A program made the translations under genes and the position numbers. The notes under the pieces are model-generated. The model saw only the letters and a list, made by a program, of their open reading frames with translations. It was not told the DNA's origin and searched no databases. Shown here piece after piece: positions 5,021 through 23,791 of a stretch of DNA of 24,000 bases. Every line of letters starts with the position of its first letter. The first letter of the stretch is position 1. This DNA is from Chloroflexota bacterium (GTDB taxonomy: Bacteria; Chloroflexota; Limnocylindria; Limnocylindrales; CSP1-4). The stretch lies in NCBI GenBank assembly GCA_041691435.1, contig JBEPUS010000001.1, positions 5,274 through 29,273 of the forward strand, written 5' to 3'.

Positions 5021-5401
5021 GTGGCTGACGTGAGCAATGATTCGCTGATCGTCCGTGACCTGGCGACTCTCGAGCTGCCGCTGCGCAAGCTGGCTCCCTA
5101 CGACCGGCCGATCGGCATGCAGCTGCTCCACGAGGACACCCAGTCGGGTGTCGAGCTGTTCGTGGTCGAGTATCCGGCCGGCACGCAGGCAGCCCAGCAT
5201 CGACATGCGGCGGCGCACACGATGGTCGTCCTCGCGGGACAGCTGGAGGTCAACGGCGAGATCCTCGGACCAGGGTCCCTGTGCCGCATCCCCGCCGAGA
5301 CGCCCATGCACCACGCTCCCGCCGCGGGTGCCTCGTGCCGCTTCCTGATGATCTTCGAGGGCGAGTCCGACGTGACGGTCATCGACGACGACGCCGGCTA
5401 G
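5021..5401 (+). CDS. Cupin-domain protein
   Basis: 126-aa ORF, GTG start. The pattern GVELFVVEYPAGTQAAQHRHAAAHTMVVLAGQLEVNG...PAETPMHH fits a single cupin barrel with His ligand motifs. Confidence 0.7.
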   Translation: MADVSNDSLIVRDLATLELPLRKLAPYDRPIGMQLLHEDTQSGVELFVVEYPAGTQAAQHRHAAAHTMVVLAGQLEVNGEILGPGSLCRIPAETPMHHAPAAGASCRFLMIFEGESDVTVIDDDAG

Positions 5402-16372: not shown

Positions 16373-17179
16373 TCAACCAGACGCGATGTCTCGCCTGCCG
16401 AATGCAATCAAGCCGAAGAGGGCGAACCCAACGGCAGGCAGCGCCAATGCCGCATATCGCCAGAATTCGGTGGGCGTGATCAGTGGATTCCCACCAAGGG
16501 CCCAGTACCAGGGCGACAACTGGCGCCACGGCGCCAGGGCGTCGACGAGGGGGAGCAAGGCAGCCCCGAAGTACCCGGCCAAGGCAACCGCGATCGCAAT
16601 ACCGAGAACCGCTGGCGGACGAGCCATTGCTCCTGCGGTCGCAATCGCGATGGCCCCATGGAAGAGCCCCAGGAGCATGCACAGGATGATCGTCGACAGG
16701 AGGAGACTGACGTCGATTGCCAGGCCCACAAGCCCGTCGGCGACCAGCTGGGCAACGGCCATTGCTGCGGTGATCAGGGTCAACCCGATCAGCACTGCGA
16801 TTGCCCGAGCGAGCAACACGGCCCGGTGGTCGACCGACTGCGCGAGGATCAGCTCCATGCGGCCGCTCGTCTCTTCCGACGCGGTCTGGCCCATGACCAG
16901 GCTGATGGCGGCAAGGGTCAGCAGCAGAGGGATGAATAGTTCGTAGAGGTTGCCGCGAAGGTAGCCGGCAGGCGTGTTGAAGTCCTGGAGCCCGAGGGCC
17001 TGCACCAACCCGCCTGGCAGCTGGTCGATAGCGCTGGAGATACCCGACGTTCCCCTGAACGCCGGCCAGAATGCGACGGTGGCTGCGATCAGGGCAGCAA
17101 GGCCTACCGACCACCACAGGACTGCCCGGCGCATTGCCCGCAGCGGAATCGCGACGAGCTCCGCGAACCTGCCCATCAT
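16373..17179 (-). CDS. ABC-2 type exporter permease
   Basis: 268 aa, six hydrophobic segments. The ...GQTASEETSGRMELILAQSV... motif after the first external loop is typical of ABC-2 family permeases. The start overlaps the ATPase stop (ATGA). Confidence 0.85.
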   Translation of the reverse strand: MMGRFAELVAIPLRAMRRAVLWWSVGLAALIAATVAFWPAFRGTSGISSAIDQLPGGLVQALGLQDFNTPAGYLRGNLYELFIPLLLTLAAISLVMGQTASEETSGRMELILAQSVDHRAVLLARAIAVLIGLTLITAAMAVAQLVADGLVGLAIDVSLLLSTIILCMLLGLFHGAIAIATAGAMARPPAVLGIAIAVALAGYFGAALLPLVDALAPWRQLSPWYWALGGNPLITPTEFWRYAALALPAVGFALFGLIAFGRRDIASG

Positions 17180-18072
17180 TCGCTCTCCGCGTAAAGATCG
17201 AGAAATGCCTCCTCGAGGTCCGGCTCCTCCACGAGGAGCGTATTGACCCGACAGCGGGCGAGGAACTCGATGAACGGCTGGATTGGACCCGAGAGCGTCG
17301 CGGTGAAGCGCCGATCGTCGAGGAGCGGGTCGACCAAGCCCGACACGGCCGTGAGGGCCTCCGCGGGTGGTGGGTCCTCGAACCAGACTTCAATGCGCTG
17401 GCGAGCGCGGCCCCGGAGGTCAGCGACGGTACCCTCGATCACGACCTTGCCGGCGCGGAGCACGGCAACGCGGTCCGCGGCCCGCTGGACCTCGCTCAGG
17501 ACGTGCGATGAGAGGAAGACGGTGGTCCCGTGAGAACGAGCCTCACGAACGAGTGCCAGGAACTCGTGCTGGATCAGCGGATCGAGGCCGTTCGTCGGCT
17601 CATCGAGCACGAGGAGCTCGGAGCCCGAGACGAATGCCAGGAGCAGCGCCACCTTCCGCCGATTGCCCGTCGACAGGTCGCGAACCTGCCGCTCGAGATC
17701 GAGATCGAGACGCGCGGCGATCTCATCTCGGCGGCGGGAATCGAATCCGCCGCGCAACCGCCCTATGCTCGCGACGAGTTCGAAACCCGTCGTGCGCTCC
17801 GGCAAGCGCAACTCGCCGGGGATGTACCCGATCCTCGCGCGCACAGCGACGCCTTCAGTTGTGGCGTCCACGCCGAAGGCCGTGACGTGCCCGGCCGTTG
17901 GTCGGAGCAGGCCCATCAGACAGCGGAGGGTGGTGCTCTTGCCCGATCCGTTCGGACCAAGCAAGCCGAGCACCTCGCCGCGCACGACCTCGAGATTGAT
18001 CCCCTGGACCGCCTCGATGGCTCCGAAGCGCTTGATGAGGCCGTCGAATCGAACGAGCTTGTCGTCGCTCAT
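17176..18072 (-). CDS. ABC transporter ATP-binding protein
   Basis: Walker A GPNGSGKST, Q-loop, signature LSTGNRRKV, Walker B LLVLDEPTNGLD, H-loop SSHVL, plus a C-terminal extension domain. I prefer ATG at 18072 (MSDDKLVRFDGL...) over the TTG at 18105 used by the track. Confidence 0.92.
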   Translation of the reverse strand: MSDDKLVRFDGLIKRFGAIEAVQGINLEVVRGEVLGLLGPNGSGKSTTLRCLMGLLRPTAGHVTAFGVDATTEGVAVRARIGYIPGELRLPERTTGFELVASIGRLRGGFDSRRRDEIAARLDLDLERQVRDLSTGNRRKVALLLAFVSGSELLVLDEPTNGLDPLIQHEFLALVREARSHGTTVFLSSHVLSEVQRAADRVAVLRAGKVVIEGTVADLRGRARQRIEVWFEDPPPAEALTAVSGLVDPLLDDRRFTATLSGPIQPFIEFLARCRVNTLLVEEPDLEEAFLDLYAESE

Positions 18073-18117
18073 CGACCGGTAACGATCACAGCCAAACCAG
18101 CTCAACCTTGCTCTTGG

Positions 18118-18131
18118 TTGTCACGTGACAA
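18118..18131. promoter_or_regulatory. Perfect 14-bp palindrome TTGTCACGTGACAA upstream of the ABC exporter operon (motif site A)
   Basis: Read directly. It lies 46 nt upstream of the ATPase ATG, in the 91-nt gap after the antiporter stop. It has the same TTGTC-N4-GACAA architecture as sites at 19710, 20498 and 22629. Confidence 0.5.
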
Positions 18132-18163
18132 TCATATCTCGGGTGCGCCGACCCGGGAGCCTG

Positions 18164-19384
18164 CTAGTCGTCGGTCGGAGCACTCGCCCGCAACGCCCGT
18201 CCGATCACGGCATCCGCCGTCGACCCTTGGACAAGCAGCGTGAACAGGACCACCCCGTACACGGTCGCGGCGATCAGCTCGCGATCCGGGAGATCGACGG
18301 GCAGCGACAGGACAAGGGCGACAGAAACGGCGCCGCGCAGGCCCGCCCAGAACAGGACGTGCAGCCACGCGACGGGTGCAATCGTGCGCCTTCCGCGGGC
18401 GATGAGCCGGCTGGCGCCACCGAGCACGACGTAGACCACCAGGGCCCGCGACACCAGCACTGCGGCGACTGCCCACGCGATGGCGCCGAGGTCGCCGACG
18501 AGTGCGTTGATGTCGATCACGAGCCCAATGAGCAAGAAGATCAACGCCGTGAGCACGAAAGCCAGCAACTCCCAGACGAGGTCGATGGATGCGGCGGCCC
18601 GCGGGCTCAGGCCATGGGCCCGGCCGTACGAACCAAGCGTGATCCCGGCCGCGGTCGTCGCGATCACGCCGGAGCCGTGCAGGGCGTCCGCGCCAAGGTA
18701 AGCGCCATAGGCGAGCACGAGCGAGATCGTGAGCTCCACCAGGTAGTCGTCTGTCAGGCGGAGAACGCGGGTTGCAATCCAGCCTGCGGCACCGCCCAGG
18801 AGAGTGCTCCCCGCGACCACGAGCACGAACCGGACGAAGCCCTCGGCGATCGAACCCGAACCGGCCGTCGCGGCGATGACGATCGAAAAGATGACGATCC
18901 CGGTACCGTCGTTGAGCAGGCTCTCGGCCTCGACCGCCGTCGACAGCCGCCGAGGCGTGGAGAGTCTCCTGAACGTCGAGATGACGGCCGCGGGGTCAGT
19001 GGCTGCCACCATCGCCCCGACGATAAAGGCCGACGCGATGGCCAGTCCGGTCGCGACGTGCAGGACGACGGCCACGACAGTCGCCACGATGAGGACACCC
19101 GGAATCGCCAGGAAAAGCACGCCGACCAGCGCCGGGCGGAGCTCGACGACATCGATCCGGAACGCCGCTTCGAAGATCAATCCCGGCAGCAGGACCGCAA
19201 GCACCAGGTTGGGCGTGATCAGGACGCCCAAGCCCGGGCGGACGAGCGCGACCCCGAGGCCGAGCAGCACGAGACCGACCGTGTAGGGCACGCGAATTCG
19301 ATCCGTCACCATGGCAACGACGACGGCCGCCCCGAGAAGGGCGACAACGGCGCGGATCGCACTCAGGGCGAGGTCGTCCGTCAT
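18164..19384 (-). CDS. Cation:proton antiporter, CPA1 (NhaP-type Na+/H+ exchanger) membrane domain
   Basis: 406 aa and polytopic. Contains FIVGAMVAATDPAAVISTF and AESLLNDGTGIVIF, the conserved TDP and ND motifs of CPA1 exchangers. Confidence 0.9.
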   Translation of the reverse strand: MTDDLALSAIRAVVALLGAAVVVAMVTDRIRVPYTVGLVLLGLGVALVRPGLGVLITPNLVLAVLLPGLIFEAAFRIDVVELRPALVGVLFLAIPGVLIVATVVAVVLHVATGLAIASAFIVGAMVAATDPAAVISTFRRLSTPRRLSTAVEAESLLNDGTGIVIFSIVIAATAGSGSIAEGFVRFVLVVAGSTLLGGAAGWIATRVLRLTDDYLVELTISLVLAYGAYLGADALHGSGVIATTAAGITLGSYGRAHGLSPRAAASIDLVWELLAFVLTALIFLLIGLVIDINALVGDLGAIAWAVAAVLVSRALVVYVVLGGASRLIARGRRTIAPVAWLHVLFWAGLRGAVSVALVLSLPVDLPDRELIAATVYGVVLFTLLVQGSTADAVIGRALRASAPTDD

Positions 19385-19442
19385 GGCGCCGAGTATGAGC
19401 GGTGAGGGTTGCCGGACGCGTCGCGACGACGCCCGGGGAATC

Positions 19443-19480
19443 GATGCAGGGCGGGCGCCGATCGGCGCCCGCCCTGCATC
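19443..19480. terminator. Perfect 38-bp GC-rich palindrome (hairpin) between flp1 and the antiporter gene
   Basis: GATGCAGGGCGGGCGCCGA / TCGGCGCCCGCCCTGCATC are exact reverse complements centred on CGATCG. It begins 14 nt after the flp1 stop on the minus strand and sits 59 nt upstream of the antiporter ATG. No U-tract. Confidence 0.6.
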
Positions 19481-19493
19481 CGGTGCGGCGAGA

Positions 19494-19673
19494 CTAGACG
19501 CTGTGGCCGACGTTGCTCAGGATCTTGGAGACCTGCCCGCCCAGGAAAATCAAGGCGATGATGGCGACGATCGCGATCAGTGCGAGGATGAGGGCATATT
19601 CAGCGAGACCCTGGCCTCGATCGGTCGGCCAAATTCGAGGCATGCTAGCGACGATCCGGTTGATACGGTCCAT
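19494..19673 (-). CDS. flp: Flp/Fap-family type IVb prepilin (flp1)
   Basis: MDRINRIVASMPRIWPTDRG/QGLAEYALILALIAIVAIIALIFLGGQVSKILSNVGHSV carries the G-x4-EY Flp motif followed by a hydrophobic helix. The ATG at 19673 has GGAG 6 nt upstream. The track ORF extends to an alternative ATG at 19718. Confidence 0.75.
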   Translation of the reverse strand: MDRINRIVASMPRIWPTDRGQGLAEYALILALIAIVAIIALIFLGGQVSKILSNVGHSV

Positions 19674-19700
19674 ACCACGCTCCAGATGAATGAAGGTAGA

Positions 19701-19723
19701 GACAAATACTTGTCTCATGACAA
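19701..19723. promoter_or_regulatory. Overlapping inverted repeats GACAA-ATAC-TTGTC-TCAT-GACAA in the flp1/marR divergent region (motif site B)
   Basis: TTGTCTCATGACAA occupies 19710-19723, and GACAAATACTTGTC occupies 19701-19714. The site is 34 nt upstream of the marR ATG and 37 nt upstream of the flp1 ATG (19673). Confidence 0.5.
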
Positions 19724-19756
19724 TGACCTGACGAGTATCGCCGATCGGACGGCGGA

Positions 19757-20194
19757 ATGACAGACGCCGATAGTCCTGTTCTCGATCTGCTCGATCGGCT
19801 GTCCATTGAACTCGTCGCGATCACGAACCGAGCGATTGCCGAGGGCGGCGTGCTTGACCTGTCCTTCCCCCAGTGGCGGCTGTTGGCGGCACTTGGGGAC
19901 GCACCGCATGCGCTCCGGCTCCATGAAGTGGCCGAGCAGGTCAGCGCCTCGATGCCTTCGGCCAGCAGGCTCGTTCAGCGGATGGAACGCCGGGGTTTTG
20001 TCTCGAGCACCCGCGCCCCGAGCGACGGCCGAGGACGGGAGATTGCGCTGACCGCGCACGGCGAATCTGTCCGTGCGGGCGTCATCGGCCGGCGCCGAGC
20101 CCTGATCGCGGCGGGCATCGGCGAGCTCGCGGGAAACGCGAAGGTGCACCCGGACCTCGTGGCGATCGTGGAGCGCCTCGCACGTCGGAAGTGA
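19757..20194 (+). CDS. MarR-family transcriptional regulator
   Basis: 145 aa. LSFPQWRLLAALGDAPHALRLHEVAEQVSASMPSASRLVQRMERRGFVSSTRAPSDGRGREIALTAHG is the winged-HTH and wing pattern (D.R...L T..G) of MarR proteins. Confidence 0.88.
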   Translation: MTDADSPVLDLLDRLSIELVAITNRAIAEGGVLDLSFPQWRLLAALGDAPHALRLHEVAEQVSASMPSASRLVQRMERRGFVSSTRAPSDGRGREIALTAHGESVRAGVIGRRRALIAAGIGELAGNAKVHPDLVAIVERLARRK

Positions 20195-20197
20195 CGG

Positions 20198-20506
20198 TCA
20201 GGGCTTGGGCGTCTTGGTCGGCTTTGGCGTCTTGGTCGGCTTGGGCGTAGGCGTTGCCTTGGGAGTTGCCGTCGGCCTTGGCGTTGGACCGGTCGTCGCC
20301 GCGGGTCCGAACCCGGAGCTGACCGATGCCAACACAGTGCCGATGCCACCGCTCATGACGGTCATCGCCGAGATCGCCAGGACTGCGATCAGCGCGAGCA
20401 CGATTGCATACTCGGCCATGCTCTGGCCGGCTCGTGCTCGGCCACGTCGACACGCAGCGGCACCCGAACGACGAGGGCCCGGCGGGTGGATTGGTAGTTG
20501 TTGCAT
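20198..20506 (-). CDS. flp: Flp-family prepilin with a C-terminal Pro/Thr/Lys-rich repeat extension (flp2)
   Basis: MQQLPIHPPGPRRSGAAACRRGRARAG/QSMAEYAIVLALIAVLAISAMTVMSGGIGTVLASVSSGF has the same G-x4-EY motif and helix as flp1. It is followed by GPAATTGPTPRPTATPKATPTPKPTKTPKPTKTPKP. The only in-frame canonical start is ATG at 20506. Confidence 0.7.
   Translation of the reverse strand: MQQLPIHPPGPRRSGAAACRRGRARAGQSMAEYAIVLALIAVLAISAMTVMSGGIGTVLASVSSGFGPAATTGPTPRPTATPKATPTPKPTKTPKPTKTPKP
20201..20291. repeat. Degenerate 18-bp tandem repeat (about 5 units) encoding the PT(K) tail of flp2
   Basis: Units are GGGCTTGGGCGTCTTGGTC, GGCTTTGGCGTCTTGGTC, GGCTTGGGCGTAGGCGTT, GCCTTGGGAGTTGCCGTC and GGCCTTGGCGTTGGACCG. 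The first two are near-identical (PTKTPK PTKTPK on the coding strand). Confidence 0.6.
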
Positions 20507-20511
20507 GACAA
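20498..20511. promoter_or_regulatory. TTGTTGCATGACAA, one mismatch from TTGTC-N4-GACAA, overlapping the flp2 start codon (motif site C)
   Basis: Read directly. The flp2 ATG (complement of 20504-20506) lies in the centre of the repeat. Confidence 0.4.
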
Positions 20512-20542
20512 CCAGATCATGCGATGGGACGACGCGGTGGGT

Positions 20543-22609
20543 CTATAGGACTTTCGGCGGGGAGACCGTCAGCGGCGGCTCCAGTTCCGTGTCTGGGAGT
20601 GTCGTGGCCGCCAGGAGTGAATCGAGCTCGGCGCGCCCGCTGGGCACGGCAAAGAGCGCTAGCCGGTCGCCGACGAGGAGCGTGAGGTCACCGCGCGGAA
20701 CGATCACCCGATCGCCGCGTTCCACCGACACGAGGAGCGTGTCACGTGGCCAGGGCGCGCTGGCTACAGTCTCGCCGGCCAGCCGCGAGCCCGCTCGAAT
20801 CTCCGCTTCAACCAGCTGACCCGTCGGCCCCACGGAGCGGATCCCTCGGACGTTGCTTGCCAGCGCACTGCGATAGGCGCTCATGACGTCGCCGCTCGAG
20901 AGAATCCCGACCAGTCGATCGCCCGCGACCACTGGAATCCAGCTCCGATGCTGGTCCGTGAGCGCGCCGAGTGCCTCGACCATCGGATCGTCGGCGGACA
21001 CGATGCGATCGTCCAGACGCTGGTCCCCGACGGTCTCGTCACCGTCCGCCGCCCGGAGATCGGTGAGCTCGATCGATCCCTGGAAACGCCCGGTCCTGTC
21101 GACGACCGGCGCACCCGGCAGGTCTGCCGCGCTCAACCGACTGATGGCGGTCGCGATGGTATCTGAAGGGTGGAGCGTGAGACGCGCCGCCCGGGCGGCA
21201 GCCCCGGCCCCGATCGAAGCCATCAGCGGCAGCGCTCCGCGGAACCGATGGGCAGGCGAGTCCGCCCGGCTGCGGAGCTGCTCTGAGTAGATTGAGCGGT
21301 CGCCGACGATCAGGGTCGCGATGCCGATCGCCAGCATGGCTGGAGCCAGCATTGCGAGGCTGTCGGTCATCTCCGCGACCATCAGCATGACAGCAAGGGG
21401 CGCGTGGGCGACGCTTCCGAAGAGGGCCATCATCGCAACGATCACGAACGGCGATGGATCGATGGGCAGCCCCGGGGCGATTGGCTCCAGGAGTCGCCAG
21501 ATCCCAGCCCCAAGCAGTCCGCCAATGACCATCCCCGGGCCGAAGACGCCGCCCGAACCGCCCGAGCCGATCGACAGCGAAGTGGCCAGGATTCGCGCGA
21601 ACGGCAGGGCCAGGACGACCCATAACGGCAGCCCGAGCAGGGTCGTCCGATCGAGCCCGGCCTGGACCCATCCGTAGCCGGTCCCCAGGACCCCAGGGAG
21701 GGCGAGCCCGATAGCCCCGACCACGATCCCGGCCAGCGCCGGCCGGAGCATGCGCGGCATCGACCAACCGCCGATCCAGCGGGTGAACCCATAGAAGCTC
21801 GCGATGTACAACCGACCGACCAGTCCGCAGGCAAGTCCGATCAGCCCGTAATAGAACAGCTGGCGGGCATCGGTGAAGCCAGCTCCTGCCACCTGCCCGA
21901 AAATCGGCGCGAAGCCGAGGACCGCGCCAAAGATCGAAAATGCCACGATCGAGGCGACGAAGGCCGGCACGAGGGCGTCGGATTCGACGTCTTCCCGGTA
22001 CGGAATCTCCGCCGCCAGAACCGCCCCCCCGAGCGGTGCCCGGAAGATCGCACCGATGCCCGCGCCCATCCCGCAGCTGACGGCGATTCGGGCATCCCGC
22101 GCGTCGAGATCAAGGAGGCGGGCGAGGAACGATCCGAATCCGGCGCCGATCTGGGCCGTGGGACCCTCGCGCCCGCCCGATCCACCCGAGCCGATCGTGA
22201 TCGCGGATGCGACGAGCTTCACGAGTGGGATCCGCGTCCGGATGCCGCGAGGGTCATGGTGGATCGCCGCGATCGCAGCGTCGGTGCCGTGGCCCTCCGC
22301 TTCTGGTGCGAACCGGAAGACGATCACGCCGGCGATCAATCCTCCCAGACCCACGACGAGCGGGATCGCCCAGGGCCGGGCCGCCGAGGTGATCGGCGCG
22401 GATCCTTCGCCGAAGGGGGAGGCAGGCGTGAACCCAGCGAGGACGCCCAGCATGGCCCTGGTGGCCAGGTCGAGCGCTCCAAAGAAGACGATCGCCCCAA
22501 CGCCGCTGATCAGCCCGATCAAGGCACCGAGAATGATCCACTTGCGGAGGTAATCGGCCGATCGAATCTGTCTCCGAAGCCTCAGAAGGAGACCGTTGGC
22601 CGGGATCAA
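20543..22609 (-). CDS. ClC-family chloride channel / H+-Cl- exchanger with C-terminal CBS pair and TrkA-C (RCK_C) domain
   Basis: 688 aa. Selectivity-filter motifs are GSGGREGP, GIGAIFRAPLGG and GSGGVFGP. Two CBS-like units follow (PVVDRTGRFQGSIELTDL and IPVVAGDRLVGILSSGDV). Next is VEAEIRAGSRLAGETVASAPWPRDTLLVSVERGDRVIVPRGDLTLLVGDRLALF (TrkA-C). TTG is the only canonical start upstream of the conserved YLRKWIILG. Confidence 0.92.
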   Translation of the reverse strand: MIPANGLLLRLRRQIRSADYLRKWIILGALIGLISGVGAIVFFGALDLATRAMLGVLAGFTPASPFGEGSAPITSAARPWAIPLVVGLGGLIAGVIVFRFAPEAEGHGTDAAIAAIHHDPRGIRTRIPLVKLVASAITIGSGGSGGREGPTAQIGAGFGSFLARLLDLDARDARIAVSCGMGAGIGAIFRAPLGGAVLAAEIPYREDVESDALVPAFVASIVAFSIFGAVLGFAPIFGQVAGAGFTDARQLFYYGLIGLACGLVGRLYIASFYGFTRWIGGWSMPRMLRPALAGIVVGAIGLALPGVLGTGYGWVQAGLDRTTLLGLPLWVVLALPFARILATSLSIGSGGSGGVFGPGMVIGGLLGAGIWRLLEPIAPGLPIDPSPFVIVAMMALFGSVAHAPLAVMLMVAEMTDSLAMLAPAMLAIGIATLIVGDRSIYSEQLRSRADSPAHRFRGALPLMASIGAGAAARAARLTLHPSDTIATAISRLSAADLPGAPVVDRTGRFQGSIELTDLRAADGDETVGDQRLDDRIVSADDPMVEALGALTDQHRSWIPVVAGDRLVGILSSGDVMSAYRSALASNVRGIRSVGPTGQLVEAEIRAGSRLAGETVASAPWPRDTLLVSVERGDRVIVPRGDLTLLVGDRLALFAVPSGRAELDSLLAATTLPDTELEPPLTVSPPKVL

Positions 22610-22628
22610 GTCGCGACCACATGGCTAG

Positions 22629-22642
22629 TTGTCATCAGACAA
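22629..22642. promoter_or_regulatory. TTGTCATCAGACAA upstream of the ClC gene (motif site D)
   Basis: Read directly, 20 nt upstream of the ClC TTG start. On the gene strand it reads TTGTCTGATGACAA, close to site B (TTGTCTCATGACAA). Confidence 0.5.
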
Positions 22643-22756
22643 ATGGTAGAGGTTGATTGGTCAACTTGGCGTTGCCTCGCCGGAGTGATGTCGAGACATT
22701 CACTCGTTCCACGGCGAGATGGGACATCGGGCGCGGCGGGCCGGAGCTCGGTGCGC

Positions 22757-23791
22757 CTAAGGTCCGGACTGCCGCCGCTGGTCGCGCCACGTTGCGGGTG
22801 CGGCCGCGGTTGAGCGCTTGAACGCCCGGCTGAACGCCGCTTCGGACTCGTAGCCCACGTGCGCGGCGACTTCAGCCACGGTCACGTCGCCCTCGCTGAG
22901 CCGGCGCGCGGCGAGCTGCATGCGCCGCCCGGCCAGGTAGCGCATCGGTGGCTCACCCACGAGCCGGGTGAATCGCTCGGCCAGGGTGGTCCGCGAGGCA
23001 CCCGCTTCGCGGGCCAGGGCAGCCAGGGTCCACGGCTCGGCGAGACGCTCATGCAGCAGGGCCAGCGCTCGCCCAACCACCGGATCGCGCAGCCCACCCA
23101 TCCAGTCCGCGTCGGTTGGCAGTCGATCAGGAGCCGGGCTCGCCAAGTGGAGGCGAAGCGTCTCGATGAAAATCGATTCGCTCAGGCGTTCGCGCACCGA
23201 CGCGCCACCGGCGCCGTTCACCTCAGCCAGCGCCAGGTCCACCAGGTCGCGGAGCCGGCCGCTGGCCGCTCGAATGACGAGCATCGGTGGCAATGCCCGC
23301 AGCATCGGATCGAAAGGAGGCACGTCGCACCCCAGGAACCCGCACACGAAACGCGTCTGCTCGAGTCCATTGGGCGCAAGGCCCGAGTTCGGCGGGACCG
23401 CCCCGGACAAGAGGCTGGCGAGGAAGTCCACCATCTGGGTCGCGTCCGCGCTGCCCAGGCGGGGTCGCAGGTCCGGCGCCAGGAAATACGCATCGCCACG
23501 GGGGTAGACGACGACATCCCCGGCTTCCAGGCGCACAGCCGATCCGTCCTCCAGTCCGGTCCAGCACGTGCCTGCCACGAGGACGTGGTACGAGAGCACG
23601 ATCTGGGTGCTCGACCCCATGCCGCTCGACAGGGACGCGCCCTTCGGAACGCGAATCGCCGGCCAAAGGGAAGGGGCATCGACGGTGTAGTAGAGCGCGC
23701 GCGTGAACCGGACCGTCCGGAGTACGACCGAGAGGAGATCTTCCGCCACAAGAACCGGACGCTCCGGCACAAGGACCGGACGCTGGGTCAT
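22757..23791 (-). CDS. AraC-family transcriptional regulator with N-terminal cupin-like sensor domain
   Basis: 344 aa. The N-terminal half is cupin-like (GDVVVYPRGDAYFL). The C-terminal double HTH reads LAALAREAGASRTTLAERFTRLVGEPPMRYLAGRRMQLAARRL...VAEVAAHVGYESEAAFSRAFKRSTAAAPATWR. Confidence 0.88.
   Translation of the reverse strand: MTQRPVLVPERPVLVAEDLLSVVLRTVRFTRALYYTVDAPSLWPAIRVPKGASLSSGMGSSTQIVLSYHVLVAGTCWTGLEDGSAVRLEAGDVVVYPRGDAYFLAPDLRPRLGSADATQMVDFLASLLSGAVPPNSGLAPNGLEQTRFVCGFLGCDVPPFDPMLRALPPMLVIRAASGRLRDLVDLALAEVNGAGGASVRERLSESIFIETLRLHLASPAPDRLPTDADWMGGLRDPVVGRALALLHERLAEPWTLAALAREAGASRTTLAERFTRLVGEPPMRYLAGRRMQLAARRLSEGDVTVAEVAAHVGYESEAAFSRAFKRSTAAAPATWRDQRRQSGP

Follow-up and report, generated by a model that had tools for sequence, protein, structure and literature searches.

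A MarR-linked pair of Flp-type prepilin genes in an uncultured soil Candidatus Limnocylindrales genome, with Tad machinery encoded elsewhere

Introduction

The pilins of the Flp/Fap family, among them Flp1 of Aggregatibacter, PilA of Caulobacter (PDB 8U1K) and the type IVb pilin 8U2B, are represented in Pfam by PF04964 and are short prepilins with a G/XXXXEY processing site and one hydrophobic helix. Tad systems with several Flp genes are known among monoderm bacteria, as in the tad locus of Bifidobacterium breve, in Micrococcus luteus and in Actinobacteria. Regulators of the MarR family form classical autoregulated divergons, of which those of E. coli MarR, OhrR and SlyA are examples. A dedicated regulator of flp/tad genes has been described in Pseudomonas aeruginosa, namely the two-component system PprA/PprB (PMC7494200). 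Tad-like pili have been reported in Chloroflexota (PMC7332563; bioRxiv 10.1101/2025.08.19.671072), and the literature searched contains no paper on pili of Limnocylindria. The present analysis concerns two small genes, flp1 and flp2, that bracket a marR gene in a stretch of 24,000 nucleotides (here, the window: positions 5,274 to 29,273 of contig JBEPUS010000001.1, assembly GCA_041691435.1) from an uncultured soil Candidatus Limnocylindrales of the phylum Chloroflexota.

The source is a metagenome-assembled genome (MAG) of 368 contigs and 2.87 Mb, with 70% GC and ~81% completeness; the genome G006, closed in a single contig, belongs to the same genus. An earlier note on this DNA, made from the letters alone, had described the two genes as orphan Flp-type prepilin genes around marR and had left it open whether their assembly genes lie elsewhere or the peptides serve another purpose. 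The explanation favoured here, to which a rough probability of three in four is assigned, is that both genes encode real Flp prepilins served by a remote Tad machine, flp1 being a satellite copy of the major pilin and flp2 a member of a tailed subfamily, and that they are regulated through MarR and a palindromic site.

Two Flp-type prepilin genes

Both genes lie on the minus strand and are separated, as the earlier note had it, by the oppositely oriented marR (19757-20194, plus strand). With its stop codon, flp1 occupies 19494-19673 and encodes 59 residues, the predicted leader being residues 1-20 (19614-19673) and the predicted mature part the remaining 39 (QGLAEY...GHSV, 19497-19613). The product of flp2 (20198-20506) has 102 residues, with a predicted leader at 1-27, a helix from Q28 and a Pro/Thr/Lys tail over approximately residues 67-102. 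The Flp signature read earlier from the letters is present in these two short proteins as Gly-x4-Glu-Tyr followed by a hydrophobic stretch: the processing motif is ...DRG/QGLAEYALILALIAIVAIIALIFL in flp1 (QGLAEYALIL... after the Gly) and ...RAG/QSMAEYAIVLALIAVLAISA in flp2 (QSMAEYAIVL...), and its G, Q, E and Y are invariant in family alignments.

The profile search that the earlier note had proposed gave a divided answer. Among Pfam families both peptides match PF04964 best, with 17.7-18.6 bits for flp1 (E 1.7e-3 to 3e-3) and 20.7 bits for flp2 (E 3.5e-4), and neither score reaches the curated cut-off of 32.2 bits. Class_IIIsignal and DUF4244 were also matched weakly in the Pfam scan, with similar strength, and a search of both peptides against NCBIfam returned weak, meaningless matches only. 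By itself the PF04964 score is not decisive; other lines of evidence speak for membership. PF04964 is the best family for all 10 of the 10 aligned members (best E 2.5e-6), and the family profile matches the solved Tad pilins 8U1K (PilA, E 3e-4) and 8U2B (Flp-family pilin, E 4.8e-4) in an alignment that spans the Glu-Tyr pair through the entire helix. Database homologues of flp2 include some named 'Flp pilin' by their source and three (P0006, P0009 and P0010) with precomputed PF04964 annotation. Taken together, the sequence evidence identifies flp1 and flp2 as genuine Flp-type (Tad, type IVc) prepilin genes.

flp1 as a satellite copy of the major pilin

The longest open reading frame listed for flp1 covers 19494-19718 (minus strand), and the upstream ATG at 19718 falls within the operator palindrome discussed below. 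Translation most likely begins at the ATG at 19673, since a GGAG stands 6 nt upstream of it, the 20-residue Met-initiated leader is kept in all flp1 orthologues of the alignment, and independent gene callers predict a 59-residue product on metagenome contigs.

Orthologues of flp1 were compared in five genomes of the same genus, over a mature part of 117 nt (39 residues) and a leader of 60 nt (20 residues). The mature part differs at 15-21 of 117 nt in the four less close genomes and at 6 in G008, with 0-3 of 39 residues changed. The leader differs at 23-25 of 60 nt and 9-12 of 20 residues in the same four, and at 6 nt and 4 residues in G008. The leader is fast-evolving and the mature peptide near-invariant, under strong purifying selection, and the shift in constraint coincides exactly with the predicted G/Q cleavage site.

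Copies on other contigs of the MAG extend this pattern. The paralogue on contig C248 has exactly the mature peptide of flp1, with 16 differences in 117 nt, all synonymous, and the paralogue on C161, cut at the contig end after its first 24 residues, has the same peptide with 9 differences in 72 nt, again all synonymous. So many purely synonymous differences indicate that these flp genes are old and strongly selected, neither chance reading frames nor recent duplicates of the assembly; the idea that flp1 is a recent duplicate or an assembly artefact of a tad-locus copy was ruled out by the same 9-16 differences. In G006, the mature peptides of the two flp genes of the tad locus are 2 of 39 residues away from that of flp1. 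Since the copies on C248 and C161 are identical and those of the G006 tad locus nearly so, flp1 is, judged by sequence, a satellite copy of the major pilin with its own leader and promoter.

Directly 3' of the flp1 stop codon lies a GC-rich, perfect 38-bp palindrome (19443-19480, minus strand) that folds into a hairpin of -47.7 kcal/mol (z = -5.5; none of 200 shuffled sequences was as stable) and has no U-tract. It likely acts as a terminator without a U-tract that ends the flp1 transcript ahead of the Na+/H+ exchanger gene.

The tailed pilin flp2

The second peptide is 36% identical to flp1 and, unlike it, carries a long tail. AlphaFold2 predicts for flp2 a single helix over residues 28-65, starting at the predicted mature N-terminus, with a disordered leader and a disordered tail; the overall confidence is low, and pLDDT reaches ~90 only in the core of the helix. 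All homologues of flp2 retain a (TPKPTK)n-like tail after the helix, and this conserved Pro/Thr/Lys tail is 35-70 residues long. In the flp2 of the window, 2.6 copies of an 18-bp tandem unit (20202-20248) make up the 3' part of the tail-coding region. By its sequence, flp2 belongs to a small, separate, lineage-specific subfamily marked by the Pro/Thr/Lys repeat tail.

The C-terminus of Tad pilins faces the surface of the filament, as in structures of the 8U1K type. Because it points outward, one may speculate that the flp2 tail would surround the pilus with an extended, basic brush, perhaps glycosylated. Some relatives have a shifted flp2 frame, the shift lying within the repeat in G014 (L041 7124-8524) and upstream of the tail on metagenome contig L074 (3122-3883), and these frameshifts may reflect slipped-strand variation or errors of long-read sequencing.

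Remote Tad machinery and dispersed flp genes

No Tad/Cpa machinery was seen in the window, in agreement with the earlier note, and its first alternative, that the assembly genes lie elsewhere, is the one borne out by the rest of the genome. Contig C231 carries a CpaF/TadA-type ATPase gene (T2SSE, 221 bits), tadB and tadC (T2SSF) and a DUF192 gene, and C300 a second TadB/TadC/DUF192 set; T2SSF is found four times in the MAG, at 63-77 bits. TadE-like and TadG-like (Tad, VWA) pseudopilins are encoded on C156, C86 and C34. The Peptidase_A24 gene of the MAG is split between the start of C189 (1-313) and the end of C44 (14457-14801), with a 13-nt overlap and a continuous frame; the fragments score individually below cut-off, and the two contigs probably adjoin in the genome. 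In G006 the peptidase is single and intact (214 residues, 47 bits, at 1559 kb), and it is TadV-like because it consists of the A24 domain only. Secretin and RcpC were searched for in the incomplete MAG and not found, and such a secretin-less set fits a Tad machine of the monoderm type.

The arrangement in the closed genome shows how far apart these parts lie. The tad locus of G006, at ~670 kb, holds genes for a response regulator, a histidine kinase and a 47-residue Flp-like peptide, followed by two flp genes, a ParA/TadZ-like ATPase, TadA, TadB (not picked up by the simple gene caller used), TadC and DUF192. Its marR-flp1 pair is at 974 kb, ~300 kb from the flp genes of the tad locus (671 kb). 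In the MAG, contig C161 presents genes for a response regulator and kinases, a Flp-like gene and then the flp gene that is cut at the contig end; evidently this is where the tad locus of the MAG begins. The conserved micro-gene that follows the histidine kinase gene and precedes the flp genes (C161:5717-5872; L058 7225-7368) encodes 47-51 residues with a hydrophobic helix of the type ...VDY(A/S)(I/L)IGLL... and is weakly Flp-like by the family profile (E 5.6e-4), with no Pfam match. In this lineage the tad locus consistently closes with a DUF192 (COG1430) gene after tadC (C231:97-459, C300:907-1296, L058 14041-14403).

Besides flp1 and flp2, five more Flp genes are present on other contigs of the MAG. 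With a hidden Markov model built from the family alignment, flp matches were found in 28 of 30 genomes of the family, at 1-10 per genome, and the eight of G006 are spread over its chromosome. Since dispersed flp paralogues are usual in this family, the word 'orphan' of the earlier note holds within the window, where the genes do not head a tad locus, and fails at the scale of the genome, where the machinery is present. Flp genes without tad neighbours are normal in the lineage, and the lack of such neighbours should therefore not be taken as a sign of a non-pilin peptide. Two further loci of the MAG show the variety of these genes. At C93:5193-5697 (L051), tandem flp variants whose mature parts are 4 and 9 residues away from flp1 lie directly downstream of a gene for a 687-residue pro-kumamolisin/S8 peptidase. 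At C303:88-417 (L052), a Flp with a long tail rich in Pro, Ser, Thr and Arg adjoins genes for a universal stress protein and DoxX; its leader of ~31 residues, of the type M-x-R-x-Y-x-W...LWR-x-[KR]-R, is conserved and common to its database homologues.

Conserved linkage of marR and flp

The regulator between the two pilin genes is a 145-residue winged-helix protein that matches PF12802 at 47.0 bits and PF01047 at 37.1 bits, above the respective cut-offs of 27 and 24.6, and belongs to the MarR family. It was treated in the earlier note as a mere separator of the two genes, and here that description has to be revised, for the marR-flp pairing is itself conserved and is the informative feature of the locus. 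Nine other genomes of the genus have an orthologue (53-90% identity), and each of these is adjoined by flp, with a divergent flp1 in seven cases and flp2 in three. In the more distant genomes G020, G024, G003 and G051, a Pro/Thr/Lys-tailed flp stands beside marR in other orientations. The pairing recurs on independent metagenome contigs of three types: L076 and L077 (ENA) carry ClC, flp2, flp1 and marR, L074 carries ClC, the frameshifted flp2 and marR, and L075 (JGI) has MFS and DnaG genes on the two sides of marR-flp1, ClC being absent from the surrounding ~3-4 kb.

Weaker MarR homologues (~35-43% identity within the family) and the Actinomycetota locus L057 are mostly without an adjacent flp, and the link to flp is therefore specific to this MarR clade and not a feature of MarR proteins generally. 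The clade is small: of 5.8 billion proteins, 21 match at E ≤ 1e-15. The protein contains no cysteine, so that it is not a thiol-based sensor; a thiol/redox sensor of the OhrR type was considered and excluded. In G051 (genus g22; L060/L073, C4:620383-622640), the tailed flp has a MarR paralogue on either side, one sharing 57% and the other 34% identity with the MarR of the window.

The genes that flank the module were correctly named in the earlier note as a Na+/H+ antiporter and a ClC channel, and Pfam adds an ABC-2 exporter further out. All are on the minus strand. The ClC channel/exchanger gene (20543-22609) encodes a CBS pair and a TrkA_C domain; ClC adjoins marR-flp in five members of the genus and on contigs L074 and L076. 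The NhaP-type Na+/H+ exchanger (18164-19384; PF00999, 194 bits) is adjacent to marR also in G002. The ABC-2 type exporter (16373-18105) comprises an ATPase (17176-18105; ABC_tran, 96 bits) and a permease (16373-17179), the ABC2_membrane matches being weak. Directly past the palindrome of the ClC promoter region lies a gene for a regulator of the AraC family whose N-terminal domain is a cupin (22757-23791), a second candidate regulator nearby.

A candidate operator shared by pilin and transporter genes

The 83-bp intergenic region between the divergent flp1 and marR genes contains a candidate composite operator, GACAA-ATAC-TTGTC-TCAT-GACAA (19701-19723), with three half-sites in 23 bp. Sites of the type TTGTC-N4-GACAA number four in the window at one mismatch or fewer, where 0.28 are expected. 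Apart from the composite, these are the exact palindrome TTGTCACGTGACAA (18118-18131), 13 nt upstream of the start codon of the ABC ATPase; the exact palindrome TTGTCATCAGACAA (22629-22642), 20 nt upstream of the start codon of ClC; and the one-mismatch palindrome TTGTTGCATGACAA (20498-20511), which encloses the ATG start codon of flp2. The Na+/H+ exchanger gene lacks such a palindrome. Across the 2.87 Mb of the genome there are only three exact copies, those upstream of the ABC exporter and ClC genes and the one in the flp1/marR intergenic region, and all fall within 4.5 kb around marR.

Comparison among relatives points in the same direction. When the intergenic region is aligned for eight members of the genus, the composite site is the sole conserved island and the spacers vary. 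A palindrome with at most one mismatch lies next to marR in 10 of 10 loci of relatives and on independent metagenome contigs. The flp2 start codon lies inside a palindrome likewise in G005, G002 and contigs L074 and L076, equivalent sites before ClC occur in G010, G006, G004 and L076, and in G006 and G004 a single palindrome stands between divergent ClC and ABC genes. A leaderless flp2 transcript was considered as well, and inspection by eye revealed no convincing -10 box. The conserved palindrome is a good phylogenetic footprint of a compact regulon, of which ClC and the ABC-2 exporter are probable members.

Proposed mechanism and rival explanations

According to the explanation favoured here, a short prepilin peptidase of the TadV type, encoded elsewhere, would cleave flp1 after Gly20 and flp2 after Gly27, and the mature helices would be polymerised by a single secretin-less Tad machine, likewise encoded elsewhere and consisting of TadZ-like, TadA, TadB and TadC proteins and TadE/G pseudopilins, with the Pro/Thr/Lys tail of flp2 decorating the filament surface. 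MarR would bind the TTGTC-N4-GACAA-type sites at its own promoter shared with flp1, at the flp2 start codon and upstream of ClC and the ABC-2 exporter, and a ligand or stress signal would switch on extra pilin, the tailed pilin variant and the ion and export functions together. That the module amounts to a stress- or ligand-responsive switch for pilus remodelling, with one MarR co-ordinating satellite major pilin, tailed pilin and ClC/ABC-2, is a tentative proposal whose odds are clearly worse than even.

Several points weigh against the favoured explanation. The PF04964 scores of both peptides (17.7-20.7 bits) lie below the gathering cut-off, and the MAG, at 81% completeness, is fragmented, with the peptidase present only as two contig-end pieces that share 13 nt. 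At one mismatch or fewer the palindrome has 27 sites in the genome, none of them on the contigs with the other flp copies, and those copies have no exact palindrome. G014 shows no palindrome (at one mismatch or fewer) near its flp2 start, the marR locus of G051 has none of the TTGTC-N4-GACAA type, and a simple scan for the sigma-70 consensus over 18000-22800 found no promoter. MarR, finally, is a putative binder of the palindrome, a role suggested by co-location and dyad symmetry.

One rival, that both reading frames are decaying duplicates or chance products of 70% GC DNA, in which spurious frames are plentiful, might draw on the frameshifted flp2 of G014 and L074, but the extreme purifying selection on the mature part effectively refutes decay and chance; with orthologues kept across genus and family and a 59-residue product called independently, this rival can be given next to no weight. 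A second possibility keeps the genes and changes their role, making the peptides small Flp-like membrane or secreted products outside any pilus, which would for instance modulate ClC, the antiporter or the ABC exporter. The consistent linkage of the flp genes to ClC and ABC genes with a motif in common would agree with it, as would Pfam scores that stay under the cut-off while Class_IIIsignal and DUF4244 score as strongly. Against it, the exact mature peptide of flp1 recurs on C248 and at the cut tad-locus head on C161, with the G006 tad-locus copies 2 of 39 residues off; the G/XXXXEY site matches a sharp change of constraint, as for a cleaved leader; and on L075 marR-flp1 stands beside MFS and DnaG genes, with ClC absent from the ~3-4 kb around it. 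The second alternative of the earlier note, Flp-like peptides with another role, is accordingly unsupported for flp1, and for the pair as a whole we regard it as very improbable. For flp2 on its own the matter is less one-sided. It may be no filament subunit but a minor or priming pilin, or else a protein that the Tad system processes and that sits at the surface or spans the wall, with the tail as the functional part: a conserved tail of 35-70 residues is unusual among Flp pilins, it is predicted to be disordered, and the identity to flp1 is just 36%. The helix and processing motif of flp2 are canonical, on the other side, and the analysis does not distinguish between a major and a minor pilin; such a special role for flp2 is unlikely, though it deserves more credence than any other rival.

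The remaining rival grants that the pilins are real and assigns the palindrome to another regulator or to a promoter element, marR being just a conserved neighbour. It has in its favour the AraC/cupin regulator directly past the ClC gene and the marR-flp pair of G051, which goes without this palindrome. On the other hand, the motif accompanies marR into different neighbourhoods, MFS/DnaG on L075 and ClC on L076, always upstream of marR, and all exact copies in the genome cluster around that gene. The size and dyad symmetry of the palindrome suit MarR dimers, which also counts against a different binding protein. We consider this rival improbable, somewhat more so than a special role for flp2 and less so than a non-pilus role for both peptides.

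Significance

The puzzle of the missing machinery is resolved: this soil lineage of Chloroflexota has its pilin genes, prepilin peptidase and Tad motor at scattered places on the chromosome. The interest that remains is regulatory and lies in a compact, conserved, MarR-centred set that joins a satellite pilin and a tailed pilin with ClC and an ABC exporter. If the regulatory proposal is true, it would be the first link between a MarR sensor and the composition of a Tad pilus, and would offer an entry point to surface attachment in uncultured Limnocylindrales. Since the protein families are well known, the impact is moderate; the family itself is ordinary, and its regulatory arrangement here is modestly new.

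Comparison with known systems

With the Flp/Fap Tad pilins named at the outset, flp1 and flp2 share the short prepilin, the G/XXXXEY site and the one hydrophobic helix, as well as a genome that encodes a TadV-type peptidase and TadA/B/C; copies of the same or a near-identical mature peptide (2 of 39 residues different) head the tad locus. They differ from them in scores below the family cut-off, in a distance of hundreds of kb from the tad locus, in the long Pro/Thr/Lys repeat tail of flp2 and in a machine for which neither secretin nor RcpC was found. A tailed Flp subfamily of this kind is undescribed in the literature searched.

The monoderm Tad systems come closer, for they too have a secretin-less core, pseudopilins of the TadE/TadG type and small Flp pilins that may be multicopy. 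What sets the present lineage apart from them is the dispersal of seven to eight flp genes, at least three of which share an identical mature peptide behind different leaders, and the tie of one flp pair to a MarR regulator. In the literature searched, no description was found of one invariant mature pilin encoded by several genes that differ in leader and in regulation, nor of a MarR-centred gene set that joins satellite pilins to ClC and ABC-2; a link between MarR and Flp pilins was likewise absent there, the co-occurrences, including that in PMC7494200, being incidental.

As in the PprA/PprB system, a transcription factor is encoded beside a pilin gene and would control pilin supply, the control by MarR being our inference; the tad locus of the lineage also resembles that system in that a LuxR-type response regulator and a histidine kinase are encoded ahead of its flp genes. 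In contrast to PprA/PprB, the regulator beside flp1 and flp2 is of the MarR family, and its palindromic operator candidate is shared with ClC and ABC-2 exporter genes. From the classical MarR divergons the locus retains the small winged helix-turn-helix protein, the divergent target and a dyad-symmetric operator candidate in the shared intergenic region. It departs from OhrR in a regulator free of cysteine, which rules out thiol sensing as in OhrR, and from the divergons in general in its putative targets, which are pilin genes and ion transporters and not efflux or detoxification alone.

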